A DNA stretch of 64,000 nucleotides from Kiritimatiellia bacterium (lineage in GTDB: Bacteria > Verrucomicrobiota > Kiritimatiellia > RFP12 > JAAYLN01), in contig JAZUMF010000005.1 in assembly GCA_045603485.1 (NCBI GenBank), forward strand, positions 40,784 to 104,783, in the 5' to 3' direction. The notes beneath the pieces were generated by a model, which saw only the letters and a list, made by a program, of their open reading frames with translations, searched no databases and was not told where the DNA came from. The position numbers and the translations under genes are program-made. Shown one piece after another: positions 9,187-48,040 of this stretch; the stretch's first letter is position 1; each line of letters opens with the position of its first letter.

Positions 9187-9310
9187 GCTTGTGCGCTGGT
9201 GCCGTCAATGCCCAAGGCTGCCAATTCCACTCGGCGGCTTTGGGTGTGGTTAGGTGTGAAGGCGGAGCCGGGACTTATGCCGTTGCGGATTTGTCATACT
9301 ATTTTTTTCC

Positions 9311-9340
9311 TTGACAAAAAGTTGAATGTCTTTTACGATT
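9311..9340 (+). promoter_or_regulatory. Putative sigma70 promoter (TTGACA, 18-nt spacer, TACGAT) upstream of the TPR gene
   Basis: TTGACA at 9311-9316 and TACGAT at 9335-9340. Confidence 0.35.
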
Positions 9341-9413
9341 GAGGAAGAGTGCATAAGGTGTGACAGACTTGTGTGCCGGTTTTGTCTTCCCATTGTTTGT
9401 TTTGATTAATGCC

Positions 9414-12400
9414 ATGCAAAAAAGAAGCCAATGTAATAAATCGCATATCGGGACGCTCGCGGCAATTTGCCTTTGTGCGGCGTCATGTGCGTTTGGGCAG
9501 GCTCAGTTGCCGCCTGAATTGGAACAAGGCCTTCGTTATGTTGAGGGGCTTCAGCAGTTGTTTTTGCTCGATATTGCCGATCAGGTTTTGAAGGATTTGA
9601 CGGCAAAATATCCTGAGGCCGCTGCTAGGGCTGCCACATTGGAGCTTAAGGCGGATTTAGTCCGCGGTAATTTTGATGCCGTCAAGGCTCGCATCGGCAA
9701 GGCACAATCGTCGGGTGAGAAGCCTGAGATTCTTTGGGCTATGAAGCTCGCTTTGGCGGACTCTTACTACACTTATGGTAAGAATGACGAGTGCCGCAGC
9801 CTTTACGAGCTTTTCTTCAAGGAGTATGCCGGCAAGAAGGATGCCAAGGGCAAGTCTGTTCCTATCCCTCCGGCTCTTGAGGGGCTCTTTACCGAGGCTG
9901 CCTATAAGTATGCCCATATGCTTGTGAGCATGAAGAAGCTTGATGCGGCTTTTACAATGTACGAGGTGATGATCGACTCGGGTAAGCTTCCTGACTACTT
10001 TGCCCGTCAATGTATGGCTAATATGGCAGAAATCGGCATCACTTTGGCTGAGGAAGCCGTTTCCGGCGAGAAGAAAAATGTCAAGAAGCGTGACGAGTAT
10101 CTCGCCAAGGTCAACAAGGTTGCCGATAAGCTTCTTTGGGTACAGGATCTTTGGTTCGGCAAGGCTATCGTTTTGAAGGCGCATGCACTTGTCCTGCAGG
10201 ACAAGCCCGAGGAAGCCCAGAAGCTTGTAGATCGCTATATGGGTACATTGACGGCGATTCATCAGGCGCTTGTTGCTCAGGAGGAGGAGACCGGCGATCC
10301 TTTGACGCGCGAAAGTCCTATGGCCGAATGCCGTTATCTTCTTGCCGTTATGTTGAAGGATAAGGCCGAGGAGATTATGAATGGCGAGGGCTTCAACCCA
10401 AGCGACGCAAAGCAGCGCGAGGAAGTTTTGAAGCTTCTTCTTGGCGCCAGGGAGAATGGCCGCAGACGCGGTGATGGCGCTTATAACCACTTTGTCAATG
10501 TTTACCTGCGTTATCCGGAGTCCAACTGGGCTGCCGATGCCGGCGAACAGTCGGAGATTGTCCGTGAGTGGCTTGTCAATACTTTCGGCGGTAATGTCAA
10601 GACTGTTGTGACTGCCGAGCAGACGGCACGCGTTCGCGCAATTCAATATCGTGACGCCCGTACGCTCTTCGCGCAGGGACAGATTGCCTCTGCCAAGGAT
10701 AGGCTTATCAAGGTTCTGAATAGCTTCCCGGATGTGCCGGAATCCATTCCCGCACTCGGCGATTTGGCAAGATGCTATATGCAGACTCTGGTTGAGGATG
10801 CCGACGCTTTGATGTATGCCGAGATGGTGATAGGCCATTTGGCAGAGCGCTTCTGCGCCCGTAAGGATATGATGAACGCTGCCGGCGATGAGCTTATCCG
10901 TATTGCCGAGTATTGGACGGAATGCGGTCGCCCAGATCTTCGTCTTGATACTTATGGTAAATTCTTCAGGCTTTATCCTTCGCATCCGTCATGCGTTTCA
11001 TATCTCTCTTCTTTTGCCGAGAAGGCTTTTCAGGATAAGGACTACCCCCATGCGATCGAGTATTACTCTGTCGTGGCGGAGTCATACACCAACTCTCCTC
11101 GCGCCTTTGACGCGCTTTCGCGTTTGGCGACAATTTTTGAGGAAGAGAAGAATCACGATAAGCTCGTTGCCGTCTTGGACGATTTGATTGCCCGCCTGTC
11201 GGCACAGCCTCGTCCTACACAGCAGCTCTTCTCATCCCGTTATCGCAAGGCTTCCGCTGTCCGCAACCATGCTTTGGAAATTATGCGCAGCGGAACAACC
11301 AATGAGGCGGATATCGCCAAGGCAACCCGTGAGTTGACCTATTCGGTGAAGTACTTTGACGACCTTGCAAACGATCTCAAGAATCCTCCGCCATCGGCTC
11401 AGGTTGATGATAAGGAGCGTGCCCAGAATGCCAAGATTCGCGAGATTGCCATATTTAATAAGGCATTGACCTTGACGCAGCTTCCTGTTGCAGATGAGGT
11501 TCGCCGTGAGAAGATGCGCGATTTGGCAATTGTTACATACGAGGAGTTAATCAAGGACTACCCGAAGGGTGATGCGGCTCCTACGGCTCTTATTCAGGTC
11601 GGTTCTATCTATGCGATGCGTAAGGATGCGGAGAAGGCTGATGCTGCGCTTTCCCGCCTGCGTAAGGATTATCCCGAGTCGGAGCAGGCTAAGAGCGCAT
11701 TGCCTCTGATGGCCGAGAACCTGATGAAGCTCGGTATGCGTGAGCAGGCTGTCGCCCGTTACCGTGAGATGTTTGCATCGTCAGGTGCCGAATATTCCGA
11801 CCGCGATATGCTTAATGCTGCAAATGCTCTTCTTGAGGCTAAGGAATATGACCTGTGCCGTACGGCAATCGATAAGGTGCTTGCAAGGGCTGAGGCCAAG
11901 TCTTCGTCTGCAATTCAGGCGAGATTTGCCGAGTGCCGCCTTCTTGTCGCAACGAAGGACTACACCGGCGCAATCGATAAGCTCAAGGCGTTTGTAAACG
12001 ACTTCTCAAATATGGCGCTCGTCGTCGACGCATATATGCTTTTGAGTCAGGCCGCCTCCGAGGCCGGCCTTGTTGAGAAGGATGAGAATCGCCGCTTTGA
12101 TCTCTTCAACGACTCAATCTCTTCTATGAAGGAGGTTAAGAAGCGTCGCACTAACGATGTCGAGGTTGCCCAGTGCGATATTGAGACCGGTCGTATTATG
12201 GCCCGCAAGGCTAAGGCCGAGGCTGAGTTCGGTAATGCCACCAAGGCTCGCGACTATCGCGGCAAGGCTCTTATTTCGTATCAGAGCTTTATCGACAATA
12301 CGCCCAAGGGCAATGCCAAAATGCTTCCGCTCGTCGAGACCGCCTTCTATGAGTCGATTCCGCTTTTGATCGACCATGGTCAGTGGGAGGTTGTCTCTGA

Positions 12401-12551
12401 CAACTGCTCCGAGTATCTGAAGCGTTTCCCCTCCGGTCGTTATGCAAGCCAGTTTAACGCCTGGAAGAATCAGGCCAGAATTGAGCTTGGAGAGGGCGGT
12501 GAGAAGCCCGCCGCCGAGCCAACAGCCGAGCCCGCCGCGGCGGCTCAATAA
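9414..12551 (+). CDS. Large secreted tetratricopeptide-repeat (TPR) protein
   Basis: Signal peptide (LAAICLCAASCAFGQ) followed by many TPR-like helical repeats. 1045 aa from ATG 9414. Confidence 0.6.
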   Translation: MQKRSQCNKSHIGTLAAICLCAASCAFGQAQLPPELEQGLRYVEGLQQLFLLDIADQVLKDLTAKYPEAAARAATLELKADLVRGNFDAVKARIGKAQSSGEKPEILWAMKLALADSYYTYGKNDECRSLYELFFKEYAGKKDAKGKSVPIPPALEGLFTEAAYKYAHMLVSMKKLDAAFTMYEVMIDSGKLPDYFARQCMANMAEIGITLAEEAVSGEKKNVKKRDEYLAKVNKVADKLLWVQDLWFGKAIVLKAHALVLQDKPEEAQKLVDRYMGTLTAIHQALVAQEEETGDPLTRESPMAECRYLLAVMLKDKAEEIMNGEGFNPSDAKQREEVLKLLLGARENGRRRGDGAYNHFVNVYLRYPESNWAADAGEQSEIVREWLVNTFGGNVKTVVTAEQTARVRAIQYRDARTLFAQGQIASAKDRLIKVLNSFPDVPESIPALGDLARCYMQTLVEDADALMYAEMVIGHLAERFCARKDMMNAAGDELIRIAEYWTECGRPDLRLDTYGKFFRLYPSHPSCVSYLSSFAEKAFQDKDYPHAIEYYSVVAESYTNSPRAFDALSRLATIFEEEKNHDKLVAVLDDLIARLSAQPRPTQQLFSSRYRKASAVRNHALEIMRSGTTNEADIAKATRELTYSVKYFDDLANDLKNPPPSAQVDDKERAQNAKIREIAIFNKALTLTQLPVADEVRREKMRDLAIVTYEELIKDYPKGDAAPTALIQVGSIYAMRKDAEKADAALSRLRKDYPESEQAKSALPLMAENLMKLGMREQAVARYREMFASSGAEYSDRDMLNAANALLEAKEYDLCRTAIDKVLARAEAKSSSAIQARFAECRLLVATKDYTGAIDKLKAFVNDFSNMALVVDAYMLLSQAASEAGLVEKDENRRFDLFNDSISSMKEVKKRRTNDVEVAQCDIETGRIMARKAKAEAEFGNATKARDYRGKALISYQSFIDNTPKGNAKMLPLVETAFYESIPLLIDHGQWEVVSDNCSEYLKRFPSGRYASQFNAWKNQARIELGEGGEKPAAEPTAEPAAAAQ

Positions 12552-12602
12552 TCTGAATTCGTCAATGGATAATTTTTTTGAATTAGCTTGAGAGGTAAAA
12601 AC

Positions 12603-13439
12603 ATGAACATTCGCAAGTCAAAACTCTTCAACTGCATTGCCGTAGCCACATTGGCATTCGGTTTCGCTTTTACCGCCGTTGCCGCTGAGCCGGCAGCTGT
12701 CGCTAAGCCGATGCCAGGTCAAATCACGCGCAAGGATGGAACCAAGATCAGCGGTAATATCCGTTGGATGTCGCAGGGCAGAAAATATATCGTTTCGCAG
12801 AGCAATAAGGACGGCCGTTCTATTTCAACCGATGTCCCGCTTTCGGATGTGGCTCGTGTTGAGACCAGAAAGCCTGAAAAGCTTGATGCTGCGATTCGTG
12901 CGGTTGAAACAGGAAAGGGAGCTGCCGCAATTCCTGTCTTGGCACAGATTGTCAAGCAGTATGAGATGCTTGGCTGGGATGAGCCGGCAACGCGTTATCT
13001 CGCACAGGCGACGCTCGATTCCGGCAAGGCCGATGTGGCTGTCGCAATCTGCGAGAAGATAATCAAGGTCAAGCCCGAGGCCGCTTATCTTGGCGATGTA
13101 GCTCCTATTTACTGGCAGGCTCTTTTGGCTACCAATAAGAAGGCTAAGCTTACAGAGCTTATCGGCAAGGCTATAGCCACTGGCGATCGTTACGCGTCAG
13201 CTTCGGCATTGATTATGCGCGGTGATATGTTTATGGAGCAGAAGGAGCCGATGAATGCGCTCAAGGATGGCTACCTCCGCGTTGTTGTCCTTTACGAGAA
13301 TGTTCGCGCCGTTCAGCCAGAGGCTCTCTTTAAGGCAGCAAAGGCTTTTGAGGCGCTTTCTCAAAATAACAACGCAGAGAAATTCCGCTCTACTCTCCGT
13401 TCAAAATTCCCCAAGAGTTCTTACGCTAAGCAGCTCTAA
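12603..13439 (+). CDS. Secreted TPR-like protein
   Basis: Signal peptide (AVATLAFGFAFTAVAA) and TPR-like helical repeats. Immediately upstream of exbB. Confidence 0.5.
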   Translation: MNIRKSKLFNCIAVATLAFGFAFTAVAAEPAAVAKPMPGQITRKDGTKISGNIRWMSQGRKYIVSQSNKDGRSISTDVPLSDVARVETRKPEKLDAAIRAVETGKGAAAIPVLAQIVKQYEMLGWDEPATRYLAQATLDSGKADVAVAICEKIIKVKPEAAYLGDVAPIYWQALLATNKKAKLTELIGKAIATGDRYASASALIMRGDMFMEQKEPMNALKDGYLRVVVLYENVRAVQPEALFKAAKAFEALSQNNNAEKFRSTLRSKFPKSSYAKQL

Positions 13440-13612
13440 TCTGATTTTACATCATCTTGATTATTTTAGGTTGCTATTTTGCGATAACTTTGCTATTATT
13501 TCGTAAGTCAGTGGAGATTGCATTAGACACCCTAAAGGTTCTTGATGATGATTTCAACAGTTCTTTTTCACCATTAACTTAAACAACTACCCCATACAGG
13601 AAACAAACTAAC

Positions 13613-14443
13613 ATGAACAAGATGCTTAAGATTGCTTTGATGTCTGCCGGTGTTCTCGCTTCCGGTTTTGTATATGCTCAGGAGGATGCTCCTGCAGTGC
13701 CTGATTTTGCAGCACCTGCCGCTCAAGCCGCAGCACCTGCCGCCGACAGCGATGTGTCGATTGAAGAGTCTGCCGATGCGAAGAAGTCCGGCGCCGCAAA
13801 GAGCAAGGATTCAACATCGCTTATAGCTGTTATCTTTGGTTCCGGCTGGCTCGGCGTTATTCTCTGGCTTGCCCTCTTCGGTTCGGGTGTCGCTGCTATC
13901 TACTTTGTCGTTGACTGCGCGATCCTTATGAAGGAGGATAAGATGATTCCCGCTGCCCTTATCGAGAAGGTTTCAGCCGCTATGGGTGAGGGTGATGTCC
14001 TTAAGGCACTCAAGGTTTGCGAGAACGATCCTTGTCCTTTGGCCAATGTTCTTTCGGCAGGCTTCCAGCATGTCGAAGAGGGCTTTGAGGTAATTCAAGA
14101 GGCTGTCAATACCGCTGCCGATATTGAGAACGAGCGTCTCACTCAGCGTATCAACTGGATTTCTGTCTGCGGCAACATCTCGCCTTCACTCGGTCTTCTC
14201 GGTACCGTTCAAGGTATGATTATGGCATTCGCCGGTCTTGCCACCGGCGCACCTGATGTCGGCGCGCTCGCACTTTCAATTTCGCAGGCTCTATGGACGA
14301 CTGCCGGCGGTCTTGTCGTATCTATCCCATCTGTCTGCGCTTACTATGTCATCCGCAACAACGCAGCCCGTTTGGTTCTCCGTATGTCTGCTCTTACCTT
14401 TGAGCTCATCAAGGACCTTCGCCACGTTGAAGTCGTCGAATAG
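13613..14443 (+). CDS. exbB: MotA/TolQ/ExbB proton-channel family protein
   Basis: Signature SPSLGLLGTVQGMIMAF, three C-terminal TM helices, and an N-terminal signal/extension. Confidence 0.8.
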   Translation: MNKMLKIALMSAGVLASGFVYAQEDAPAVPDFAAPAAQAAAPAADSDVSIEESADAKKSGAAKSKDSTSLIAVIFGSGWLGVILWLALFGSGVAAIYFVVDCAILMKEDKMIPAALIEKVSAAMGEGDVLKALKVCENDPCPLANVLSAGFQHVEEGFEVIQEAVNTAADIENERLTQRINWISVCGNISPSLGLLGTVQGMIMAFAGLATGAPDVGALALSISQALWTTAGGLVVSIPSVCAYYVIRNNAARLVLRMSALTFELIKDLRHVEVVE

Positions 14444-14479
14444 TTCTTTACGGTCATCCCCTGAAAAAGGAGAACTTAA

Positions 14480-14929
14480 ATGGCCCGAAAGAGAATAACC
14501 AGCGGCGATGGAGGAGAGATGAATATGACGCCGATGATCGACGTCGTATTCCAGCTCATCATCTTCTTTGTCGTTACGCTTAAGATGACCAAGGAAATCA
14601 ACAAGGAGATTGTCCTTGAAGATGGTCGCCACGGCGAAACGATTACGCAGGAGAATATGCCAATCCAGACGGTTGTCATTGAAGTAGACCGCCGTCGCTT
14701 CGGCCGTAGTCGTGGAAGGGTGTCGATTAACAACGCAACCTTGAATGATACGCAGCTTCGCAATATCATTCAGGCGCGTATCGGCAAGTTCGGTTCTTTC
14801 CCCGTTTTGATTCGTGCAGATAAAAAGGCAAAGCATGACGATGTGAAGCGCGTTATGGATATCTGCACGGCATGCGGATGCTGGAAGATCGGTTTTGTGG
14901 CTATTCAAGAGCATAAGGCTAAGGATTAA
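14480..14929 (+). CDS. exbD: Biopolymer transport protein ExbD/TolR
   Basis: TPMIDVVFQLIIFFVV TM signature plus a periplasmic domain. Confidence 0.8.
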   Translation: MARKRITSGDGGEMNMTPMIDVVFQLIIFFVVTLKMTKEINKEIVLEDGRHGETITQENMPIQTVVIEVDRRRFGRSRGRVSINNATLNDTQLRNIIQARIGKFGSFPVLIRADKKAKHDDVKRVMDICTACGCWKIGFVAIQEHKAKD

Positions 14930-14941
14930 GTGAGGTTTTGA

Positions 14942-15337
14942 ATGGCTAAGCGACTTAAAAGTGATGAAGCCAAGGTCGAGATGACACCGATGATTGATGT
15001 CGTCTTTCAGCTCCTTATTTTCTTCGTCGTAACATTGAAGCAGGAAGATATTCTTTCAAAGCTTATGGCATCTCGCCCGGCTCCCGATCCTAATGCCAAA
15101 AAGGAAGAGCAGCCTGATCTTATCAATATCGAAATCAACAAGTATGGTTTCGTTGTAAAGGGCAATGCCGTATCTTTGGAGGGACTTGATAGGCAGATGC
15201 GCCGTTATGCGGCAATGTCTACATCTGCCAATGTCCTTCTGCGCTGTACTTCTGACTCTCCTCATCAGTTCCTTGTGCAGGCACTTGATATCTGCTCAAA
15301 GTATAAGATGAAGAATTTGTCAATTTTCAGTATGTAG
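14942..15337 (+). CDS. exbD: Biopolymer transport protein ExbD/TolR (second copy)
   Basis: TPMIDVVFQLLIFFVV. Paralogue of the previous gene. Confidence 0.8.
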   Translation: MAKRLKSDEAKVEMTPMIDVVFQLLIFFVVTLKQEDILSKLMASRPAPDPNAKKEEQPDLINIEINKYGFVVKGNAVSLEGLDRQMRRYAAMSTSANVLLRCTSDSPHQFLVQALDICSKYKMKNLSIFSM

Positions 15338-15425
15338 CGTTCTTATATTGAAGCGCGGCCCGTGGTCACGGCTGGCTCCGGGTCAGCTTTGACCATGGGT
15401 CTTTTGTTTATAATGGAGTTTTAAT

Positions 15426-16688
15426 ATGCCCAAGTTTAATTTTATCGCAACAGATGCCACCGGTAAGGAAGTGCGTTCTACCATTGAGGCGACAACGCAG
15501 GCTCAAGCTATTGCACTTATCCGCGCCAAGAATCTCTTCCCGACTGCAATCGGACAAGCCGACGGCAGTAAATCCGCCGCCAAGGTAGAGGCCAAAAAGA
15601 CCGGGATGAATGCCGAGATTAAACTTCCGTCATTCTTAAAACCCCGTGTCAAGCAAAAGGACTTGACGACTACAACGCGCCAGCTTGCAACTCTTATGGC
15701 GGCCGGTTTGCCGTTGCTTCGCAGCCTTCGCGTTCTTGAGCGTCAGTGTGCAAATCAGACGATGAAAGAGACGCTTCATGCGATGGGCGAGTCGGTTGAA
15801 TCCGGTAACTCATTCTCCGAAGCTCTTTCATCGCATCCCAAGATATTCGACAACCTCTATGTAAACATGGTCAAGGCCGGTGAAGCCGGTGGTGTTATCG
15901 AGCTTGTCTTGAACCGTCTGGCAGAGTTTATGGAGAAGTCGCAAAAGATTACCAACAAGGTCAAGAGTGCAATGACCTACCCGATGGTTATTCTTATTGC
16001 GGCTATCGGTATTACCAGTGTCTTGATGCTTACCGTTATTCCAAAGTTCGAGGAAATCTTTACCGACCTTTTGGAGGGTAAGCAGCTACCCGCAATTACC
16101 CGCATGGTTATCGGCATTTCCAATGCCTTGCAGCATTACTTCATCTTTATCGCCATGGGCATTGCGGCTATCGTAATGATCGTTTCTTTGGCTCTCAAGA
16201 CTAAAGCGGGCCGTGATTTGCGCGATCGCCTAAAGGCTAATCTGCCAGGTCTCGGCTCATTGACGAGGCGTACTTGCATTGCCCGTTTGACCCGCACATT
16301 GGGCACTCTTCTTTCGTCAGGCGTTCCTCTTTTGCAGGCTCTTGCGATTGTCCGCGATACGGCAGACAATGTAATTTACTACAACGCTCTGCAGACCGTT
16401 CACGACGGTGTCAAGGAGGGTGAAAATCTCTCTAACCTTATTGAGCAGACAAAGGTCTTTCCTCCGATGGTTGTCGGTATGATTGATGTCGGCGAAGAAA
16501 CTGGTGCTATTGCTGATATGCTTACGCGTATCGCAGATACATACGATGACGAAGTTGATAATGCCGTGTCGGGCTTGACTTCACTCCTTGAGCCTATGGT
16601 TATTATTCTCTTGGCAGGTATTGTCGGTACTATCGTTATCGCTATGTTCTTGCCCCTTATCTCCGTTATCTCCTCACTCAACGGTTAA
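15426..16688 (+). CDS. gspF: Type II secretion / type IV pilus platform protein (GspF/PilC family)
   Basis: Two T2SSF repeats, each with a TM helix. 420 aa, typical of GspF. Confidence 0.85.
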   Translation: MPKFNFIATDATGKEVRSTIEATTQAQAIALIRAKNLFPTAIGQADGSKSAAKVEAKKTGMNAEIKLPSFLKPRVKQKDLTTTTRQLATLMAAGLPLLRSLRVLERQCANQTMKETLHAMGESVESGNSFSEALSSHPKIFDNLYVNMVKAGEAGGVIELVLNRLAEFMEKSQKITNKVKSAMTYPMVILIAAIGITSVLMLTVIPKFEEIFTDLLEGKQLPAITRMVIGISNALQHYFIFIAMGIAAIVMIVSLALKTKAGRDLRDRLKANLPGLGSLTRRTCIARLTRTLGTLLSSGVPLLQALAIVRDTADNVIYYNALQTVHDGVKEGENLSNLIEQTKVFPPMVVGMIDVGEETGAIADMLTRIADTYDDEVDNAVSGLTSLLEPMVIILLAGIVGTIVIAMFLPLISVISSLNG

Positions 16689-16726
16689 TGCCCGTTTTCC
16701 CGGGCAAAAGAGAAAGGTAATAAGCA

Positions 16727-17545
16727 ATGAAGGCTAAAAATAAAGAAGGCTTTACCCTTTTGGAAATTCTCGTTGTTCTCGTCATTATGGCACTTTTGAT
16801 GGGGATAACCTTTCGTCTGACTAATTCGGTTAAGTCTGCACGAGAGGTCAGCGATACGATGAAGAAGCTGCAGAATCTCAATGCCGCGATTTCTGAGTAT
16901 CATGCCGAATACGGAATTTATCCTCCAGTAAAGATGGCTGTCGATAATGACGGTCGCACTTCAGAATGCGACAAATATCCGGGTTCAGAGATTGCGTATT
17001 CTCTCCCTGATGTCACGACAATAAATGGCTTTGATCACAAACTGGGTCTCGTCTCGTATCTTGTCGATAGGACAGATATTTGGGGGAATGGACAGCTTAC
17101 TTTGGGTAGTATCTACAAAAACGCAAGTGAAGCCTTTCTAAAGGATGTTTTCGGTCCAGATAGCGAATGGAGCGAACACGGAAAGGGCCTCTCTGACGAG
17201 GGCGGCATGGCGACTGATTTAAATGATCTCTTAGCTCCATCAAGGCGCGATAGAAACTTTATCAGGAAGATCAGGCCATTTGTCAGGGCTGCAGTGACGG
17301 ATTATGGTTGCCATGATCCAACCAAGAAAGATAAGCTTCATTACAAGTTTTCAGCAGTTGATGCATGGGAGAGGGATCTTGTCTATATTTGCCCGCCTCC
17401 ATATTCTTCCTTCTCGCTCTTTTCACTTGGCAGAGACGGCAGGTGTGTCGCCTCAGATCCTTTGAATCGCGATGCCGAATGTCCCAAATGCGGAGAGCTC
17501 CACAACAAGGATAATATCTATGCAGGAGTTGATGACAATGATTAA
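16727..17545 (+). CDS. Prepilin-type N-terminal cleavage/methylation domain protein (pseudopilin 1)
   Basis: N-terminal KEGFTLLEILVVLVIMALLMGI class-III signal, where G-F is the cleavage site and E sits at +5. Confidence 0.8.
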   Translation: MKAKNKEGFTLLEILVVLVIMALLMGITFRLTNSVKSAREVSDTMKKLQNLNAAISEYHAEYGIYPPVKMAVDNDGRTSECDKYPGSEIAYSLPDVTTINGFDHKLGLVSYLVDRTDIWGNGQLTLGSIYKNASEAFLKDVFGPDSEWSEHGKGLSDEGGMATDLNDLLAPSRRDRNFIRKIRPFVRAAVTDYGCHDPTKKDKLHYKFSAVDAWERDLVYICPPPYSSFSLFSLGRDGRCVASDPLNRDAECPKCGELHNKDNIYAGVDDND

Positions 17546-18080
17546 AAACCAATCTAAAAAGGCGGGCTTTACCCTTGTTGAGATGATTACCGTTATGATA
17601 ATCATCACCCTTTTGATGTCCGTCTCTACAGCTGCAATTATCGGTGCCAAGCGCAATGCCTCGATGACTCGCGCCCGTGATTTAGGCCGTCAGCTTTGTA
17701 TTGCCTGGGGAGCCTACTTGATGGATCAGCGCTCCTTCCCTGCAGAGTCTGAATTTCCCGACAAACCCAATGGCGACAACTATTTTGAAGCTTCTGCCAG
17801 AAATCTCGGTAAAAAACTCAACAGGGTTTACAATAAAAAAGGTAAAATTATCGGTAAAAAGGTCTACTTTGAGCTTTCAGAGGAAGAGTGCGAGCCAAGT
17901 GGCAAGGACGACTTTACCGGAACCGGCCTTTTGAATGATTGGAAGTGGCCGATTTGCTTTACATTGGATTTTGACCTTGACGGCAAGGTCAAAACTATAG
18001 AAAATCAAGATGTCAATGCAAGCGCATGTGCCTATTCGCGGGTTTTGAAGAGCGGTAAGAAGAAGGTTATTTCCTGGTAG
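17532..18080 (+). CDS. Prepilin-type pseudopilin 2
   Basis: KAGFTLVEMITVMIIITLLM. In-frame ATG 17532/17538 follows AGGAG. The ORF track start at 17472 overlaps the previous gene. Confidence 0.75.
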   Translation: MTMIKNQSKKAGFTLVEMITVMIIITLLMSVSTAAIIGAKRNASMTRARDLGRQLCIAWGAYLMDQRSFPAESEFPDKPNGDNYFEASARNLGKKLNRVYNKKGKIIGKKVYFELSEEECEPSGKDDFTGTGLLNDWKWPICFTLDFDLDGKVKTIENQDVNASACAYSRVLKSGKKKVISW

Positions 18081-18090
18081 GGGTTTTAAT

Positions 18091-18639
18091 ATGAAAAAGC
18101 ACGGTGGTTTTACTTTGATTGAACTGTTGGTTGTCATAGCAGTCTTGGCAATTTTATGCACTATCGTTATCGGTGCGTCATCTATGATTACGCAAACATC
18201 AAGGGAACGCCGCTTTACCATTACAAAGGAAGTGCTGAAGGTGGCGATTATGCGCTACCGTACCGAATATGGGGTATGGCCTGTCAGCAAAGAAGATGAT
18301 TTTGACAGGGAAAAAGACGGTGTTTACTATCTGAGCACCAATAATGACAAGGTCCTTAATGCGCTCCGTACTTGCAATCAAGAGAAGAATATGAATCCCG
18401 ACGGAATCCGTTTTATTGACGAAACGACTATCTATACATCGGATGGGGATGATATGATTCCTCTTCACAAGGCAAGCGGAAACAAGGGGCATAAGATTGT
18501 ATACAGGGTGAAGAACGGCCGCATAGAAGGGACATCAAAGAAATGGGCGCTCTATGAGATAGGCTTTAATTTCCGCGATGATACGGTCACTGTTGGACCT
18601 GACACGATGGTTGATGGGAGTGAAGATGATGAGTACTAG
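18091..18639 (+). CDS. Prepilin-type pseudopilin 3
   Basis: HGGFTLIELLVVIAVLAIL. Confidence 0.8.
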   Translation: MKKHGGFTLIELLVVIAVLAILCTIVIGASSMITQTSRERRFTITKEVLKVAIMRYRTEYGVWPVSKEDDFDREKDGVYYLSTNNDKVLNALRTCNQEKNMNPDGIRFIDETTIYTSDGDDMIPLHKASGNKGHKIVYRVKNGRIEGTSKKWALYEIGFNFRDDTVTVGPDTMVDGSEDDEY

Positions 18640-19384
18640 CGGCTCAAAGGGCTTTACACTGATTGAGCTTTTGACTGTGCTTGCTGTGATGATTATCGTC
18701 ACATCAATTGTGGTCACAAGTTCCTTTGGTCTTACTAAGGGCTCGGCTTACACTACGGCTCAGGATGTGCCCTTTAATGTCTTGGCATACGCCCGCCAAA
18801 GAGCATGTATGGATGGCAAGACTACGATTGCCAGGTTCTTTGATGACGGTGGTGAGAAGACTCTTAGCATCTTCCAAGCTTCCGGCGTCGTGACGAGCGC
18901 AAGCGGCAGTGGTATCACCGACAAGTATTCAGGCGTCAATTCTGTCAGCGGAGCGCAATCCGGCGGGATGTTGACAGCCTTAAACTTTGAGTCGGGCGAA
19001 ACTTTTGTCGTTGAGAGTATAAAAAAAGAGGAGAATGCCGGCTTTGTAACGATTGACTCTGATGATGCGGCTGACGGTAAAAAAAATAAATACAGCTTTC
19101 CGGTCCGCTCAATCAAGGCAAAGGGGAGTATCAACAAGGAAAAGTGGAAGACCGGTTCCTCGTATGGATTTGAGATTTCCGAGCGCGTCAGGCTGCCAAA
19201 GGATTTTGATTATTCGATATCGGGAGGTAAGACAAGCGGTGACGCTTTTTGGGTCACATTCTTGCCGGACGGCACCTCTGACAATGCGACGATTACCATT
19301 GCAGACGCTGCCGGTGGTAAGAACTCCCGTAAGATTAAGATTGAAATTGCCGGTGGTCAGGTTACCGTTGACAAGGGCTTCTAG
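18626..19384 (+). CDS. Prepilin-type pseudopilin 4
   Basis: SKGFTLIELLTVLAVMIIV. ATG 18626 overlaps the previous stop. Confidence 0.75.
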   Translation: MMSTSGSKGFTLIELLTVLAVMIIVTSIVVTSSFGLTKGSAYTTAQDVPFNVLAYARQRACMDGKTTIARFFDDGGEKTLSIFQASGVVTSASGSGITDKYSGVNSVSGAQSGGMLTALNFESGETFVVESIKKEENAGFVTIDSDDAADGKKNKYSFPVRSIKAKGSINKEKWKTGSSYGFEISERVRLPKDFDYSISGGKTSGDAFWVTFLPDGTSDNATITIADAAGGKNSRKIKIEIAGGQVTVDKGF

Positions 19385-19396
19385 CTTGGTGATATC

Positions 19397-19987
19397 ATGA
19401 AATTTTTCCTAAATAATAAATCGGCAGGCTTCACCTTAATTGAGATAAGTCTTGTTCTTTTACTCTTTGGCTCGGCTGTCGGCGGGCTTTTAAGCTTTTT
19501 CAGCGTAGGGTTGCGTCAGGAGAACAGCGCGATGTCTGATACGGTTCAGTCCATGTTCGCCTTTGATGTGTTGGGGCAAATAGAGGCCAAGGCCGCAGAG
19601 ATTAACGATCTGTCAATCTGGAACAGTGATATAAAGTCTAAATTGCAAAATAATCTTACCGTAGGTATAGGTACAAATTCAAAGAAGATCAAGTTTACAG
19701 GGATTTATAAGGGAATTGGTAACGATGATAAATTTGCCGATAAGTCCTTTGATATGAGCGTGCTTTTGGAGGACTACCCGAAAGAGCGTTCATATATCCG
19801 CTATAATTTGGATATTGTCAAGGTCCGTAATCCTGTTGATTTTGGAAAGGATGGAGGCCCGTGTCTTTGGCGCGTTTCTATTTGGGTAACAGACAGGCGC
19901 GATGCCATCCCGACTGACAATACGCCTTTTATCGTTGATTTAGCCTATCAGGGCGGCCTTGATGATGTTTTGAATGTTGAGGAGTAG
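19397..19987 (+). CDS. Prepilin-type pseudopilin 5
   Basis: SAGFTLIEISLVLLLFG. Confidence 0.75.
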   Translation: MKFFLNNKSAGFTLIEISLVLLLFGSAVGGLLSFFSVGLRQENSAMSDTVQSMFAFDVLGQIEAKAAEINDLSIWNSDIKSKLQNNLTVGIGTNSKKIKFTGIYKGIGNDDKFADKSFDMSVLLEDYPKERSYIRYNLDIVKVRNPVDFGKDGGPCLWRVSIWVTDRRDAIPTDNTPFIVDLAYQGGLDDVLNVEE

Positions 19988-19991
19988 ATTG

Positions 19992-20633
19992 ATGCAAGTG
20001 AAGCAAATAAAGGGTTCCTCAGGCTTTTCGCTGGTTGAAATTCTCGTTGCGACGACGATTTTGCTCGTTATTGTCGTTTTGGTCTCAATGGTCTTTCAGC
20101 AGCAGAGCGCTGCTTTCCAAGCGGGCGTCGACCGCACTCAGGGGCAATCAGCCCTTCGGAGCGTTATGGGTATGGTTTCCAGGGATTTGTCACTGGCTGT
20201 TGATTCAGAGGATTATTTGGATTTGCCCAAAAATAAGTTTTCATCGACAAGCTTGTCGTTTCTTGCCTTGACTGGAGTGGACGGCAAGGATAATGTTGGC
20301 GCCGACAGCGAAGGAACTTTGTCTCTTCAATTGATTAAATACAGTTATTCAAGCAAGGTTGTCAGTCGTGAAGTTTCCAATATTTCTTTTTCAAAGGGTG
20401 GATGGAAAACAAGCGGCGCAAAGAAGAGTGCCTTAAACAGCAAGAGTAATCCGATTAACGACTTGGAGTTTATTGTTGAGGGTGGAACACTTACGATGCC
20501 GAATAATATCCGCATCTTAGCGTCCACCAAGGCAAATACGACGGCTTCGCCTGTTAGCGGCCATAGTGCCGGGCCAAACAGCTTATGGAACGACGATGAC
20601 GATATTTTTGTCGGCGGTAGGATGAATGAATAG
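19992..20633 (+). CDS. Prepilin-type pseudopilin 6
   Basis: SSGFSLVEILVATTILLV. The ATG at 19992 follows the previous stop. Confidence 0.75.
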   Translation: MQVKQIKGSSGFSLVEILVATTILLVIVVLVSMVFQQQSAAFQAGVDRTQGQSALRSVMGMVSRDLSLAVDSEDYLDLPKNKFSSTSLSFLALTGVDGKDNVGADSEGTLSLQLIKYSYSSKVVSREVSNISFSKGGWKTSGAKKSALNSKSNPINDLEFIVEGGTLTMPNNIRILASTKANTTASPVSGHSAGPNSLWNDDDDIFVGGRMNE

Positions 20634-20646
20634 GAAAGGGAGTAAG

Positions 20647-21120
20647 ATGAAGTTGTTTTCTCATATTACATCCCGTAGAAGTGCGGGTTTTACATTGCCG
20701 GAGCTTTTGGCGGTCGTTTGTATTATTTCTCTTTTGATGACAGCCTCCTTTGGTGCTCTTGCGAGAGCTAGAAAGATGGCGAGAATCACTAAGGCAGAGG
20801 TACAACTGCGTGAGCTTATCAATGCCTGGACTCAGTATTACACGACATACGAGGAGTGGCCATCCAATATGGAGGGCGCGCGTGATGTTGATGCAACGGG
20901 TGTTCTTCTCGCTCCGCTAACCGACGCTAATCATGCTGACAACCCGTACGGTATTGTATTTTTGAATTTTTCGGGCTCTGGCGCATATCGTGATCCATGG
21001 GGGCAGATGTATCGGCTTTCAACGAGCTCAGGTGGTAACTCGTCATCAGGTAGAGAGAAGGGCCTTACAATTCTCGAAACGACTGTTGCTCTGCCTAAGC
21101 GTATTGTCCCAATTCCCTAA
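20647..21120 (+). CDS. Prepilin-type pseudopilin 7
   Basis: SAGFTLPELLAVVCIISLLM. Confidence 0.75.
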   Translation: MKLFSHITSRRSAGFTLPELLAVVCIISLLMTASFGALARARKMARITKAEVQLRELINAWTQYYTTYEEWPSNMEGARDVDATGVLLAPLTDANHADNPYGIVFLNFSGSGAYRDPWGQMYRLSTSSGGNSSSGREKGLTILETTVALPKRIVPIP

Positions 21121-21134
21121 TGGAAGGAATAACG

Positions 21135-24100
21135 ATGAAAAGACTTCCACAATTAGATTCTTCGCGTTCCGGCATGGCTTTGGTTATCGTGCTGGGTTTG
21201 ATTTCTCTTTTGATTATCAGTAGCGTTACCTTTGCAATTTTGATGCGCGTTGAGCGTGCGAGCTCTGCCAATGCGCGCAATACGATGATGGCGCGTCAAA
21301 TAGTCAAAGCCGCATTGTATAATTCAATTGCGACGATTAGTGCCAATATCGGAGACGCTGCTTATCCCGAATGGTATGATTTGGATAAACCTGAAAAGCC
21401 CTACTGGAAAATGTATTCGACAAGAACAGATAAGGCTTTGGGCAAGAAAGAAGGGCGCGAGATACATTTCTGGAAGGATACCTTCGGTTCTATCGATCAT
21501 AACATTGGAACAAGCCCCGAAGGTGCTCGCGCTCCAGCCTTGATAATGACATATTCCGCCGAGCGTTATTTGCCTTATGCAATTCGTCATCGTGCATACG
21601 CAAGGGCTATGTCAGAGGGCGGAAAGTCGACTGGTGGCGTTAGCGGTATCGCACCGGAGTGGATTCCCGTTGCAACAGATGCAGATGATGTCAGCAAGGA
21701 AGGCGACAGCGATCTTAATACTAATGCCAGCAAAAATCAGAATATCGTCGGCCGTTATGCCTTTATGGCATTTAACACGACGGGATATCTTGACCTTTCA
21801 GCTATGATTTCAGAATATGCAAAGGCAAAGGAAAAACCTGTGCGTTTTATGGGTACGAGCGTATCTGAGCTCTCTTTGAGCTCAGCCTTTTTCAGCAAAG
21901 AGACAACTCATCAGAAATTCATTGAGGATAATGAAAATGCCGGTCGCTATGATACGGTCGCTGAGATTCTTGACCATAATCGAAAGAATGCCGACAAAGA
22001 TGGCGAGAATGACTCCGTCTTTGCCGACGGTGCGACATTTTCGGCCTTTTCATATATGCCAAAGGAATATGCACCACACAAGTCCGATGATGTTAATGAT
22101 AAAAAAGAGAATGGCGTAGCCTTCCGTGAAAAGATTTATATAGGTAAATACGATCCGGCAACTCCGGGCGAGGAGTTTAAGGAAAAAGAAGGTCAGGTCG
22201 AGCACATTAAGAAGCACAAGGCTCGCATAATGAAGGCCTTTTATGATAGCGGACTTCGCGCTTCATCGGGAGAGTACAGGAAGAATAAGACTATTTCAGA
22301 AGCAAAGTGCGATATTTGCGGCACTGCGGCATATACTTTGCCGACCAAGTATAATTCAGAGCAGGCACTTTGGGGATATCTTGGTTTGATTGATTATATC
22401 GATGAAGACGGCGAGCCTGCCGGTGATAATGATATGGAGCGCTACGGTCGCCCCGTAACCGAGGCGTCTCCTTTATTCAACGGCTTTATGACAGTTATTC
22501 GCTTGACGCGGGGCGAAGTAGTTGAAGAAAAGGATTATGAGTTGCCCAGCGGCGCAACCGAAAAGCGCAAGGTACTCAAAAGCGGCAAGGTCGGTGTCAC
22601 TGCCGAGGTAGTTGCAAAGATGGCCTTTACCGATCGTTTCGGCGAGAATTCAGGCTCTGATTTATTTGGCGATGCTATCTACGAGGGAAAGATTGCCTTG
22701 AGGTTTGATGGGGGTAAGAAAGAAGTATGGAAGGAGGGAATTGCCGAAGCCGCCAAAACGCTCAACGGCGTAGACAAAGACTTGCTTGATGAAGGTGCAA
22801 TTGTTTGCGTCGGCGAGCTTGATGGGGAGTATCCTGATGTTCCGTTGCTTTTGATTGAAGACTTTAAGTATGAAAGTGAAGTTAATGCTGCAAGCCTTGA
22901 TGAGGTAGAATTCCCAGATATGGTTTATGCCAGTGCCGCAGCCCAGATTGAGATGATTGATGGCATCACTCAGCGTATTCCTGCCGATGAGGCTATCTAT
23001 ATAAATGAAGGGTACGAGGATTGGCTTACTGCGAGTGTCGAGCCTAAACCTTTTGAGATTCAGGGTGAGGAGAAGGTCAGGGTAAATGTCAGCGATGGGG
23101 TCGCAACCTATACTGTTACTACGAATGTCGTTCATTTGGTTATGTGGGGTGAGATGCTTGATCCTCGTTTTTATCACGCAGGAGCCTACTCCGAGACAAT
23201 GCCTAATGCCTTGCCGAAGGTTGCACTTGTAAGTCATGACGAAGATTTTGACGGCGCCGGATTTTTGGATGACTATGAAAAGCTTCCTGTCCTTCCAATC
23301 TTTAACGACATGAAGAGCTTGATGGAAAAAGGCGGGTATCAAGAGTTCATCACGGAGTTTAAAGAATTCAAAAATCCGAAAAAAGAGTATTTCGTCAAAG
23401 ACTATTTTGCAACTGCCGACCTTGATGTGGGCTACTATACAAAATTCCAAAAGGCTTTTCTTGAGAATGCATCCGATATTCTCAAGGATAAGAAATATTT
23501 TGGCGGTCACATTGACGGCTCGCATCTCGGTGTTGAGGTCGGCAAAGACAATAAGGAAACCGATACTCTCGCGAATCAGTGGTTTACGATGCATGTCAAA
23601 AATAAGCCGCTAGATACGGTGGGCGAGCTTGGTCATTTGCCGATTGGCCCATGGGCGACGATTCGTTTGACGGGTTTTGATAGTGAGGTCGCAGAGGGTA
23701 AAAAGTTTGAGAAAGACGATTTCTGGAATAACTTCAACCAGCTCCCCGAAGTGTATAGCCCTGAAGACGGCGAGGATGTGACAATGCCGTTCCATACGGT
23801 ATTAGACCATTTTACCACCCGCGGTGCCACGCGCGGTTTGATCAATTTGAATTCGCCAGATCCTGCAACCTTGGCGATGGCATTTTATGATATGCCTCTT
23901 GATACAGAGACTTTGCCTGCCGTGGACGATAAAGACTGTGATGTTATAGTGACTGATACCGATGCTGAGGATTTCGCCAGTGTGCTTCTTGATTCATGGA
24001 GTCAGCATAATGAAGACGAGGACGAGCCAGTCCCATTTTCGCGTCTCTCTCAATTAGGGTATGCCTTTGAGGCAGGTCCAGAGGTCTTAGGTGGGGTTGC

Positions 24101-24356
24101 CGAGCCTTCCAATTATTATCGCGAGGCGGCAATCCGTAATTCCTGCGGGCTCTTTACGACCCGCGGTATGACCTTTACGATTATTATGCGCGGTGAGGCA
24201 TTTACACCTACATTCGGTCGAATCGCCGTTAGCGATGAGGCCGGTACAACGCATGCAACCCGTACTGCAATAGCACAGGTTTGGCGCGATACTGAAAAGA
24301 ACGAGGACGGTATTTATCCTTTCTTTATTCAGTACTTCAAGATTCTTGACGACTAG
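21135..24356 (+). CDS. Giant GspK-like minor pseudopilin (1073 aa)
   Basis: The N-terminus GMALVIVLGLISLLIISSVTFAILMRVERASSANARN resembles the non-cleaved hydrophobic helix of GspK. It lies immediately after the seven pseudopilin genes. The rest of the protein is acidic and of unknown fold. Confidence 0.55.
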   Translation: MKRLPQLDSSRSGMALVIVLGLISLLIISSVTFAILMRVERASSANARNTMMARQIVKAALYNSIATISANIGDAAYPEWYDLDKPEKPYWKMYSTRTDKALGKKEGREIHFWKDTFGSIDHNIGTSPEGARAPALIMTYSAERYLPYAIRHRAYARAMSEGGKSTGGVSGIAPEWIPVATDADDVSKEGDSDLNTNASKNQNIVGRYAFMAFNTTGYLDLSAMISEYAKAKEKPVRFMGTSVSELSLSSAFFSKETTHQKFIEDNENAGRYDTVAEILDHNRKNADKDGENDSVFADGATFSAFSYMPKEYAPHKSDDVNDKKENGVAFREKIYIGKYDPATPGEEFKEKEGQVEHIKKHKARIMKAFYDSGLRASSGEYRKNKTISEAKCDICGTAAYTLPTKYNSEQALWGYLGLIDYIDEDGEPAGDNDMERYGRPVTEASPLFNGFMTVIRLTRGEVVEEKDYELPSGATEKRKVLKSGKVGVTAEVVAKMAFTDRFGENSGSDLFGDAIYEGKIALRFDGGKKEVWKEGIAEAAKTLNGVDKDLLDEGAIVCVGELDGEYPDVPLLLIEDFKYESEVNAASLDEVEFPDMVYASAAAQIEMIDGITQRIPADEAIYINEGYEDWLTASVEPKPFEIQGEEKVRVNVSDGVATYTVTTNVVHLVMWGEMLDPRFYHAGAYSETMPNALPKVALVSHDEDFDGAGFLDDYEKLPVLPIFNDMKSLMEKGGYQEFITEFKEFKNPKKEYFVKDYFATADLDVGYYTKFQKAFLENASDILKDKKYFGGHIDGSHLGVEVGKDNKETDTLANQWFTMHVKNKPLDTVGELGHLPIGPWATIRLTGFDSEVAEGKKFEKDDFWNNFNQLPEVYSPEDGEDVTMPFHTVLDHFTTRGATRGLINLNSPDPATLAMAFYDMPLDTETLPAVDDKDCDVIVTDTDAEDFASVLLDSWSQHNEDEDEPVPFSRLSQLGYAFEAGPEVLGGVAEPSNYYREAAIRNSCGLFTTRGMTFTIIMRGEAFTPTFGRIAVSDEAGTTHATRTAIAQVWRDTEKNEDGIYPFFIQYFKILDD

Positions 24357-39649: not shown

Positions 39650-39725
39650 AGGCTGTTAGCTCAGTTGGTAGAGCATGTGACTTTTAATCACAGGGTCGCG
39701 GGTCCGAATCCCGCACGGCCTACCA
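39650..39725 (+). tRNA. tRNA-Lys (anticodon TTT)
   Basis: Hand-folded cloverleaf: acceptor AGGCTGT/ACGGCCT, D-arm GCTC..GAGC, anticodon loop CTTTTAA, T-arm GCGGG-TCCGAAT-CCCGC, and an encoded CCA. Confidence 0.9.
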
Positions 39726-39735
39726 AATTTTTAAT

Positions 39736-39812
39736 CGGGGTGTAGCGCAGTCTGGTAGCGCGTCTGCCTTGGGCGCAGAAGGTCGTGGGTTCGAATCCCG
39801 CCGCCCCGACCA
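39736..39812 (+). tRNA. tRNA-Pro (anticodon TGG)
   Basis: Acceptor CGGGGTG/CGCCCCG, anticodon loop CTTGGGC, T-arm GTGGG-TTCGAAT-CCCGC, and an encoded CCA. Confidence 0.9.
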
Positions 39813-45249: not shown

Positions 45250-45265
45250 AGTGGGAGAAGGCTGT

Positions 45266-47551: not shown

Positions 47552-48040
47552 ATGGATAAAATGGGTCAGGAACAGATAGTTGACGCAGTGCGCAACTGGC
47601 TTAAAGCTAACGACTGGTATTACGATTACAATGCCGAGAAGCATATGTTCAATATGAGCATCAGCCTCAAGAGCAAATTACAGTCAGGCAGGATATTCGT
47701 AGATGTCAAGGAAGACTGTTACGCGGTGTACATTTACGCGCCAATTAGGGGCAAGGACAATCTCGCCGAACTCACCAAGTACCTGACGATGGCCAACTAC
47801 GGCCTGCTCAACGGGAACTTCGAGCTGGACGTAGACGACGGCGAAATCCGCTACAAGACCTACGTGAATTGCGATGGGTTGCAGGAGCTCTCTTCAGCGG
47901 TTATCGAGGACAGCATTTACGTCGGCTGTGTTATGATGGATCGCTATGGCGACGGCATCGCCGCGCTTGCGCTTGGGTTCTCCGATGCCGACACGGAAAT
48001 CAAGAAGGCAGAAAAAAAGGACGAGTCTTCTGCTTCGTGA
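47552..48040 (+). CDS. YbjN-family protein (T3SS-chaperone-like putative sensory transduction regulator)
   Basis: A 162-aa acidic protein with the YbjN-like pattern: the DWYYDY region, then YAVYIYAP...LNGNFELD. Confidence 0.55.
   Translation: MDKMGQEQIVDAVRNWLKANDWYYDYNAEKHMFNMSISLKSKLQSGRIFVDVKEDCYAVYIYAPIRGKDNLAELTKYLTMANYGLLNGNFELDVDDGEIRYKTYVNCDGLQELSSAVIEDSIYVGCVMMDRYGDGIAALALGFSDADTEIKKAEKKDESSAS

Follow-up and report, generated by a model that had tools for sequence, protein, structure and literature searches.

A nine-gene gspF and pseudopilin module with an oversized GspK-like protein in Kiritimatiellae, probably one part of a split T2SS-type machine

[quoted passage not shown] The locus described here resembles such a split T2SS in that a platform gene is followed by pseudopilin genes, and ATPase, secretin, and peptidase genes are missing from the locus; it differs in its host, which belongs to the PVC group rather than to the Proteobacteria. 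Within PVC, a T2SS has been reported without detail for K. glycovorans (PMC5148204), and chlamydial T2SSs have been reported to lack GspLM (PMC6668835). Guts, rumen, and sediments harbor abundant Kiritimatiellae and relatives, which break down sulfated and complex glycans and whose large hydrolase sets need export. Their secretion machinery has so far been uncharacterised, and a defined nine-gene module with assigned parts can now be given. We consider it likely that this locus supplies the platform and pseudopilus of a T2SS-type machine that belongs to the type IV filament superfamily and whose genes are spread over several loci of a Kiritimatiellae genome.

Layout of the nine-gene module

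The window, meaning the whole 64,000-nucleotide stretch that was analyzed, contains between positions 15426 and 24356 gspF, seven prepilin-type genes, and a gene for a protein of 1,073–1,078 aa, all on the forward strand according to the ORF list (Table 1). From their sequences, these nine genes are predicted to form an operon for parts of a T2SS-like filament: its platform in the membrane, seven subunits resembling pilins, and a tip protein of unusual size. Junctions between the operon's genes range from -14 to +38 nt. At the starts chosen in this analysis, pil1 overlaps pil2 and pil3 overlaps pil4; longest-ORF starts create further overlaps at pil5/pil6, pil6/pil7, and pil7/giant. The preliminary description had noted several stop/start overlaps. 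Promoter and terminator scans gave counts at chance level (27 versus 20.5 and 23 versus 19.3, respectively) and were unused as evidence.

Table 1. Position and putative assignment of the nine genes
Gene	Assignment	Position	Strand	Length	Support
gspF	gspF/pilC-type inner-membrane platform protein	15426..16688	+	420 aa	Pfam T2SSF x2, E=3e-62
pil1	large GspG-type pseudopilin	16727..17545	+	272 aa	N_methyl 30.9 bits, T2SSG, PDB profile matches
pil2	GspG-type paralogue	17532..18080	+	~182 aa	N_methyl, hhalign, PDB profile matches
pil3	GspG/major-pilin-type paralogue	18091..18639	+	182 aa	N_methyl 35.6 bits, hhalign, PDB
pil4	GspH-like minor pseudopilin	18626..19384 (start approximate)	+	~252 aa	NCBIfam GspH; overlaps pil3 end
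pil5	PilV/GspI-like minor pseudopilin	19397..19987	+	196 aa	orthologue HMM matches and position
pil6	GspJ-fold minor pseudopilin	19992..20633	+	213 aa from public-annotation start (P0351)	best fold match GspJ
pil7	small canonical GspG-like pseudopilin	20647..21120 (start approximate)	+	157–164 aa	PDB 5wda profile alignment, D-P-W-G
giant	GspK-like cap pseudopilin	21135..24356 or from 21120	+	1,073 or 1,078 aa	best structural matches GspK

The earlier claim of seven consecutive prepilin-type genes after gspF is upheld by the ORFs, the family models, and the motif counts together. All seven pilins match Pfam N_methyl, with pil5 (19.8 bits) slightly below the 21.2-bit cut-off, and all seven pass the TIGR02532 cut-off. 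In each of them, a hydrophobic helix follows G|F[TS]LxE. Translated in six frames, the window contains the prepilin motif [GAS][FM][ST][LM]xE[LIVM] nine times, with seven of these occurrences at the pilin genes; 200 shuffles gave a mean of 0.125 and a maximum of 2. Counting the giant gene, there are eight pilin-like genes, which agrees with the earlier remark that the locus exceeds the canonical five.

The platform protein contains two T2SSF domains, as expected for a T2SS GspF. It scores 400.5 bits against NCBIfam TIGR02120, slightly under the equivalog cut-off of 424, and 407 bits against the PilC model NF052607, whose cut-off is 700.

Assignment of the pilin-like subunits

HMM and fold assignments of the pilins lead us to read the module, from its sequence, as gspF plus G(x4)-H-I-J-K. 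All subtype HMM scores fall below curated cut-offs, except that of T2SSG on pil1. In this protein, whose cleavage-type motif is G|FTLLE, extra sequence separates the N-terminal helix from a GspG-like C-terminus; the T2SSG match (25.6 bits; cut-off 21) covers residues 210–240, and the PDB profile matches are GspG structures, 5wda for the N-terminal and 2kep for the C-terminal part. The profile of pil7 aligns to PulG/GspG 5wda over residues 1–100, and the residues D-P-W-G, a GspG hallmark, are invariant in nine orthologues; its T2SSG score is 18.2 bits, below the cut-off. Scores against the NCBIfam GspG equivalog are 31–51 bits, short of its cut-off of 88.85. A major pseudopilin of GspG type, one of the marks of a T2SS, is thus represented by pil1 and pil7. 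By hhalign, the pil7 family aligns with pil2 over 127 columns (probability 99.2%) and with pil3 over 100 columns (probability 99.1%). PDB profile matches of pil2, the start of which is ambiguous (17520, 17532, or 17538), are to major pilins and GspG 5wda; those of pil3 are to PilE1, PilE, and GspG. These data point to four putative GspG-type subunits, pil1, pil2, pil3, and pil7, among which pil7 is most likely the candidate major subunit.

The minor subunits were assigned largely through their orthologues. The best NCBIfam match of pil4 is GspH (33 bits, below the curated cut-off), and its C-terminus has a weak Pfam GspH match, also below cut-off. GspH is matched by nine of nine pil4 orthologues (best 7e-10), all below curated cut-offs. 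The weakest assignment of the seven is that of pil5 as PilV/GspI-like, which draws on matches of its orthologues to PilV TIGR02523 (6/7, best 5e-7) and XpsI (2/7) and on its position between the H-like and J-like genes. For pil6, the best fold match is GspJ.

The terminal protein begins with RSG|MALVIVLGLISLL and lacks Glu at +5; this prepilin-like N-terminus and the best fold matches, to GspK/XcpX (PDB 3ci0_K, 5vtm_X), are those of a GspK. Its length of 1,073 aa differs from the ~300 aa of those proteins and is ~3.5 times that of the NCBIfam GspK model (307 positions), somewhat beyond the threefold excess given in the preliminary description. The ~750 additional residues are largely beta-rich, and the secondary-structure and conservation profiles place a variable, beta-rich middle region at roughly residues 450–700. 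Against NCBIfam GspK NF037980 the protein scores 13.3 bits (cut-off 130), the match spanning residues 17–66 only; the best E-value across the family is 6e-9. Pfam T2SSK gave no match to it. A search of PDB sequences with the family's sequence profile also returned no match, probably because the N-terminal helix is missing from the GspK chains deposited there. The analysis links the GspK fold to a large family, of 3,078 clusters at 50% identity, that Pfam does not match.

The module shares with canonical T2SSs a G-type subunit together with putative H-like, I-like, J-fold, and K-like subunits, the H-I-J order, and a K-like subunit without Glu+5, and the best fold matches are to GspJ and GspK. 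It departs from them in having four GspG-type genes rather than one, three of them upstream of H and the fourth between J and K, and in its ~3.5 times longer K-like protein; in addition, no GspC, L, or M was found in its neighborhood. The four GspG paralogues in one module and the 3.5-fold enlarged GspK-like cap are new features.

The Verru_Chthon cassette is a four-gene cassette of Verrucomicrobia. Like the present module, it combines prepilin-type proteins, three in number, with a single very large protein whose model length is 1,296 and whose N-terminus is GspK-like. Its proteins A, B, C, and D (NCBIfam TIGR02600, TIGR02598, TIGR02599, and TIGR02596) are weakly matched by the giant (42/43 members), pil5 (4/7 orthologues), pil6 (34/37 members), and pil4 (7/9 orthologues, below curated cut-offs) families, respectively. 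The matches lie far below cut-offs (in window proteins 11.4 bits versus 332 for A, 22 versus 256.5 for C, and 19.8 versus 70 for D, with no match of the window's pil5 to B) and in window proteins are confined to N-terminal regions. The comparison covers the models of the cassette proteins, and a literature search found no paper on Verru_Chthon. The present module differs further in containing gspF as well as its four genes of GspG type. Weak as they are, the matches are consistent and suggest an H/I/J/K set with an oversized K as a common theme; the cassettes, unexplained in PVC, may likewise represent tip complexes of minor pilins under an enlarged cap.

One alternative is a surface-exposed type IV pilus-like fiber, rather than a periplasmic secretion piston, in which the giant protein would serve at the tip as a PilY1- or ComZ-like adhesin or receptor and attach the cell to mucin, polysaccharide particles, or other cells. 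We regard this as unlikely, if worth keeping in view. In type IVa minor-pilin/PilY1 tip complexes and in Thermus ComZ, large pilins or adhesins are located at the tip. PilY1 is no pilin and has a beta-propeller domain; no such domain was detected in the giant protein, which is itself pilin-like and GspK-like. The best fold matches are to T2SS proteins (GspK for the giant protein, GspJ for pil6), although this evidence is T2SS-biased because the PDB contains few type IV minor-pilin structures. GspG-specific features occur on pil7 and pil1 (DPWG and the T2SSG match). The window ORFs scanned contained neither a retraction ATPase of PilT type nor a PilMNOP or PilY1 domain. The type IVa combination of minor pilins with PilY1 was likewise not found, as neither a PilY1/Neisseria_PilC domain nor PilN/O/P/Q/T/B was matched in the window, where the sole PilM_2 match is the actin fold of MreB.

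Partner components and proposed assembly

The Pfam scan covered 48 likely-gene ORFs, drawn from 64 ORFs of at least 150 aa over positions 1–64000. Among these 48, T2SSE, Secretin, and Peptidase_A24 had no match, and a six-frame motif scan of the window found no GspE Walker A, PilD GxGD box, or secretin motif. The earlier statement that no ATPase, secretin, or peptidase lies within 20 kb therefore holds for the full 20 kb downstream; upstream, it holds as far as the window edge at 15.4 kb. In related loci, GspE, GspD, and the GspO/PilD peptidase were never found within 10 kb on either side of the module. GspC, GspL, and GspM, which also belong to a T2SS, had no Pfam match among the scanned window ORFs; they may be encoded elsewhere or be too divergent for detection. 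The preliminary description proposed a split or non-canonical apparatus. This is partly supported: the split, T2SS-type reading is likely, with Legionella as precedent. The absent ATPase is no anomaly: Legionella lspFGHIJK is the same kind of split, and missing ATPase or secretin genes nearby are not anomalous in themselves for type IV filament systems.

By analogy with the working of T2SSs, a prepilin peptidase encoded elsewhere would cleave the leaders, at G|F(T/S)LxE in the seven pilins and at G|M in the giant protein. A tip complex of the H/I/J-like subunits with this giant, K-like one would then prime assembly. An ATPase of GspE type, also encoded elsewhere and docked on GspF, would polymerize GspG-type subunits beneath this tip, with the small canonical pil7 most likely being the main filament subunit. 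The filament might push substrates through a secretin encoded elsewhere or pass the secretin itself. The cap's extra residues would sit at the distal end, and it is speculation that they could touch cargo, the secretin, or some outside ligand, for instance a glycan. A more far-reaching and rather doubtful proposal is a distinct PVC-specific branch of type IV filaments without GspC/L/M, with several GspG-type subunits and a ~1,000-aa GspK-derived cap whose surface-reaching, beta-rich modules would bind polysaccharide or cargo. Were it correct, the pseudopilus would be a substrate-capturing or enzyme-presenting device in glycan-degrading anaerobes, not a plain secretion piston.

Conservation and neighboring genes

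Among the relatives examined, which are Kiritimatiellae, Victivallales, and 'Lentisphaerae' MAGs, all those with a contig across the region have the module; the Kiritimatiellae hosts are gut and rumen bacteria. GspF is 52–84% identical across related loci, a conservation far above that of the pilins. Because the seven pilins have one-to-one orthologues in identical order in every related locus examined, they are not redundant copies. These orthologues are kept, with intact frames and preserved class III signals, even where GspF is only 52–65% identical. Decaying or redundant paralogues left over from a canonical T2SS elsewhere might explain an excess over five pilin-like genes, several of them GspG-like and duplicate-looking, but a positional orthologue for each of the seven makes this scarcely credible. 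The preliminary description would have been overturned by a complete gspC-E/D locus directly upstream, with the present genes as its redundant paralogues; the upstream region in the window contains no gsp locus, and the conserved synteny contradicts redundancy.

Genes for exbB-exbD-exbD end 88 nt upstream of gspF on the same strand, in the company of TPR genes (TPR_6/YfiO-type matches) and mreBCD-pbp2-rodA. The linkage recurs in related loci, complete in L001, L003, and L004 and up to exbD2 at the contig end in L002. With no GspE near any copy of the module, one could envisage a self-contained, ATPase-less filament machine that draws on the proton-motive force through this adjoining motor. We judge this highly improbable: the linkage is absent in L005, L010–L013, and L016–L018, where the nine-gene module has unrelated upstream genes, and the TPR and mreBCD-pbp2-rodA neighbors fit a Tol/Ton-like envelope system. 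Of these loci, L012 comes from assembly GCA_017454745.1 and L018 from GCA_001577815.1. Moreover, we know of no type IV filament system that works without a GspE/PilB-family ATPase. ExbBD, its linkage being confined to a closer clade, was rejected as a conserved component and placed outside the conserved unit.

Neighboring genes also bear on a pseudopilin-based polysaccharide (slime/EPS) exporter like cyanobacterial Hps, which has pseudopilins HpsB-D, a very large HpsA, and a secretin. In the distant relative L010, a sugar transferase gene lies just upstream of the module and the polysaccharide gene RgpF nearby, and 6 of 37 pil6 family members weakly match HpsC (best 6e-6). One report describes that cyanobacteria and myxobacteria need T2SS-family secretins to secrete slime (PMC12475490). 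We find such an exporter improbable, since no giant-family member matched HpsA at E<=0.1, the HpsC matches are weaker and rarer than those to GspJ, and next to the module neither the window nor most relatives have glycosyltransferase or polysaccharide genes.

The module's flanks differ from locus to locus. Flanking ORFs considered as shared components (801 aa in L011, 509 aa in L013, 1,133 aa in L005, and 818 aa in the window) were rejected, as tblastn revealed no homology between loci. Upstream of the module in L009, merely a 49-aa fragment is visible.

Gene content of the operon and identity of its pilins

ORF calling identifies nine closely packed ORFs, neighbors overlapping by up to 14 nt or lying up to 38 nt apart. 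The platform protein encoded by the first ORF scores 400.5 bits against the NCBIfam GspF model (cut-off 424) and 407 bits against the PilC model. In each of the following seven ORFs, pil1 to pil7, the encoded protein opens with a short basic leader that runs into G|F(T/S)LxE and then a hydrophobic helix. Every one of these proteins matches Pfam N_methyl, with pil5 slightly below the cut-off (19.8 versus 21.2 bits), and all pass the TIGR02532 cut-off. Six-frame translation of the whole window yields nine instances of a loose prepilin signal, seven inside the operon; the chance level is a mean of 0.125 over 200 shuffles. The ORFs and their N_methyl, TIGR02532 and T2SSF matches thus bear out the preliminary description of gspF, seven consecutive prepilin-type genes and a giant ORF.

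Features of the window and of related loci from other assemblies (L001 to L018)
Locus	Feature	Position	Strand	Details
Window	Nine-gene operon	15426-24356	+	
Window	gspF/PilC-type platform gene	15426-16688	+	420 aa; two Pfam T2SSF domains, E=3e-62
Window	Giant gene, last ORF	21120 or 21135 to 24356	+	1,078 or 1,073 aa; N-terminus RSG|MALVIVLGLISLL; 21135 used for identical public protein P0001
Window	Upstream of operon			mreB, mreC, unannotated 176-aa ORF, PBP2-type transpeptidase, rodA, RNase G
Window	Between RNase G and gspF	9360-15337	+	1,063-aa TPR protein, 283-aa TPR-like protein, exbB-exbD-exbD; 88-nt gap to gspF
Window	Downstream of operon			ABC-F ATPase
L001, L003, L004	Upstream of module			TPR/ExbBD, as in window
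L002	Upstream of module			TPR/ExbBD, visible only to exbD2 (contig end)
L005	Upstream of module			ThrRS and IF3, then two small unknown ORFs
L010	Upstream of module			Sugar transferase
L011-L012	Upstream of module			801-aa unknown ORF; further up, GDSL lipase and DNA pol III delta-like gene
L013	Upstream of module			509-aa unknown ORF, VTT-domain protein, sigma factor
L016-L018	Upstream of module			TRAP transporter and universal stress protein
L001	GC-rich repeat	4800-9995		Five operon junctions/leaders
L005	1,133-aa ORF	12634-16035		About 17 nt after giant gene
Window	mfd	33674-36922		
Window	818-aa ORF	36919-39375	-	End overlaps mfd start
Window	tRNA-Lys(UUU), tRNA-Pro(UGG)	39650-39812		10 nt apart
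Window	Schlafen AlbA_2, HATPase_c_4 and winged-helix ORF	45092-46702		
Window	Low-GC stretch together with seven-ORF run	48000-63100		
Window	Seven-ORF run	49186-54687, 54684-55280, 55277-58354, 58351-59031, 59028-60935, 60913-62436, 62396-63094	+	

The orthologue profile of pil7 aligns over residues 1-100 to the full-length GspG structure 5wda, and D-P-W-G, which we take to be a GspG hallmark, is invariant across nine orthologues. Well past the N-terminal helix, pil2 and pil3 align to the pil7 family over 127 and 100 columns, respectively, each at 99% probability. Pil1 scores above the Pfam T2SSG cut-off in its C-terminus; both of its ends match GspG and are separated by additional sequence. 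For pil4, GspH is the top NCBIfam match in all nine orthologues (best 7e-10). Orthologues of pil5 match PilV, which corresponds to GspI in type IV pili, in six of seven cases and XpsI in two of seven. With pil6 a GspJ-fold minor pseudopilin, the gene series of the operon would be F, G, G, G, H, I, J, G, K.

The giant GspK-like protein

The N-terminus of the giant protein resembles a prepilin helix lacking the Glu at +5. A word-indexed search finds about 49 relatives; an exhaustive profile search finds 3,078 clusters at 50% identity (E<=1e-3), 426 of them at 1e-30. Precomputed Pfam domains are absent from all members of the aligned family. In the AF2 model from 43 family members (pLDDT 77, pTM 0.79), a 60-residue helix forms the N-terminus, the long middle part (roughly residues 450-680) is rich in beta structure, and the C-terminus folds into a three-stranded sheet. 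Conservation peaks at residues 1-80, 401-440, 881-920 and 1001-1078, and shorter members (about 700-780 aa) retain chiefly the N-terminus and residues ~817-1073. Such retained ends would be expected if a pilin-type core were split by a variable insertion, the topology that GspK has.

The NCBIfam GspK model is weakly matched by 38 of 43 family members. In fold comparison GspK gives the best matches, and behind it come helix-hairpin-helix proteins (ComEA), the large Thermus pilin ComZ and generic Ig/FN3/CBM-like sandwiches; a Foldseek search with the giant protein returned no match. We conclude that the giant protein is a cap derived from GspK and carrying about 750 additional residues. Membership in the curated GspK family was rejected at 13 bits versus a cut-off of 130.

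Conservation of the module and its proposed function

Wherever the contig covers the whole region (L001, L003-L005, L009-L013 and L016-L018), all nine genes occur in identical order, and the shorter contigs of L002 and L006-L008 hold partial modules with the order retained. The related loci are labeled Kiritimatiellae/Kiritimatiellia, Victivallales, 'Lentisphaerales' or 'Lentisphaerae', and rumen and gut samples are the source of many. In tblastn, every window pilin pairs with the gene at the same position, and identities are 52-84% for GspF, 26-55% for the pilins and 21-37% for the giant protein. The seven pilin genes are therefore individually maintained orthologues rather than recent duplicates, and sequence comparison indicates that the module as a whole is ancient and conserved. 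Redundant or decaying paralogues, contradicted by this one-to-one orthology, are hardly credible; nor does the 15.4 kb visible upstream of gspF, which holds mre, TPR and ExbBD genes, contain a gspC-E/D locus.

T2SS-ATPase, secretin and A24-peptidase domains are absent from the 48 scanned ORFs, chosen as likely genes from the window's 64 ORFs of at least 150 aa. A six-frame motif scan for the three components was negative in the window and 14 related loci, and none of the related loci compared has GspE, GspD or PilD within 10 kb of the module. The initial claim that all three are missing near the operon thus stands, upstream for the 15.4 kb visible before gspF.

The module's flanks vary between loci. 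The TPR and ExbBD genes adjoining mreBCD-pbp2-rodA probably form a Tol/Ton-like envelope system. A machine powered by ExbBD in place of an ATPase is highly improbable, since ExbBD genes are not linked to the module in the more distant loci that have it.

In T2SS, once a peptidase has cleaved the leaders, assembly is primed by an H-I-J-K tip complex; GspE then works through GspF to add GspG subunits, and the filament acts at the secretin. The operon would supply every filament and platform part for this mechanism, the remaining parts coming from elsewhere in trans. We consider it likely that the locus provides the platform and pseudopilus of a T2SS-type machine whose genes are spread over several loci. 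Its output may be protein secretion or a surface fiber; the PilC model fits GspF as well as the GspF model does, and pil5 is more PilV-like. A surface pilus bearing an adhesin at its tip is an unlikely reading. An Hps-like polysaccharide exporter, to which weak HpsC matches and the neighboring genes of one relative point, is quite improbable.

Split loci are already known from Legionella pneumophila, whose functional T2SS occupies five loci, one being lspFGHIJK (PMC6617341). Genes for T4aP and ComM systems usually lie in several loci, and one prepilin peptidase can serve more than one system (PMC6668835). A T2SS is reported for the Kiritimatiella glycovorans genome (PMC5148204). Here, it is the presence of four GspG-type genes and the large size of the cap that depart from the standard; a literature search found no published description of the nine-gene module. 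Proteins A, B, C and D of the Verru_Chthon cassettes are weakly and consistently matched by the giant, pil5, pil6 and pil4 families, respectively. These matches therefore suggest that the uncharacterized PVC cassettes may also be H/I/J/K-type tip sets with a giant K. Verru_Chthon family membership of the window's own locus was rejected, all scores being far under the cut-offs.

Other features of the window and related loci

In L001, a REP-like GC-rich repeat lies before pil1, pil2, pil6, pil7 and the giant gene. It comprises tandem ~24-nt units GCCACNGCGGGGGTGCGGGGGC, then AGAGCCCCCGACCCTTTGG, with GGGGGC/GCCCCC hairpin potential. The window's operon lacks it, its sole repeats being pilin N-terminal coding segments. 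In L005 ('Lentisphaerales'), where the giant protein is shorter (877 aa), the 1,133-aa ORF has no Pfam domain and no counterpart in the window or other loci.

Between 48 and 58 kb, the window's GC content falls to 0.37-0.43 versus about 0.50 elsewhere. A run of seven overlapping ORFs begins there and extends into normal-GC sequence. It includes a 1,833-aa protein without a Pfam or PADLOC match, a histidine phosphatase, several domainless ORFs and a 1,025-aa protein that combines a receiver domain with TCAD9 ('ternary complex associated domain 9', E=3e-20). This run looks like a horizontally acquired signaling or conflict system. The Schlafen ORF shortly before the stretch weakly matches PADLOC models of Argonaute-associated SIR2-PNTD (E=9e-9). 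The 818-aa ORF beside mfd has no Pfam or PADLOC match and no homologue in the related loci compared. The two tRNA genes are the sole Rfam/ARAGORN matches in the window.
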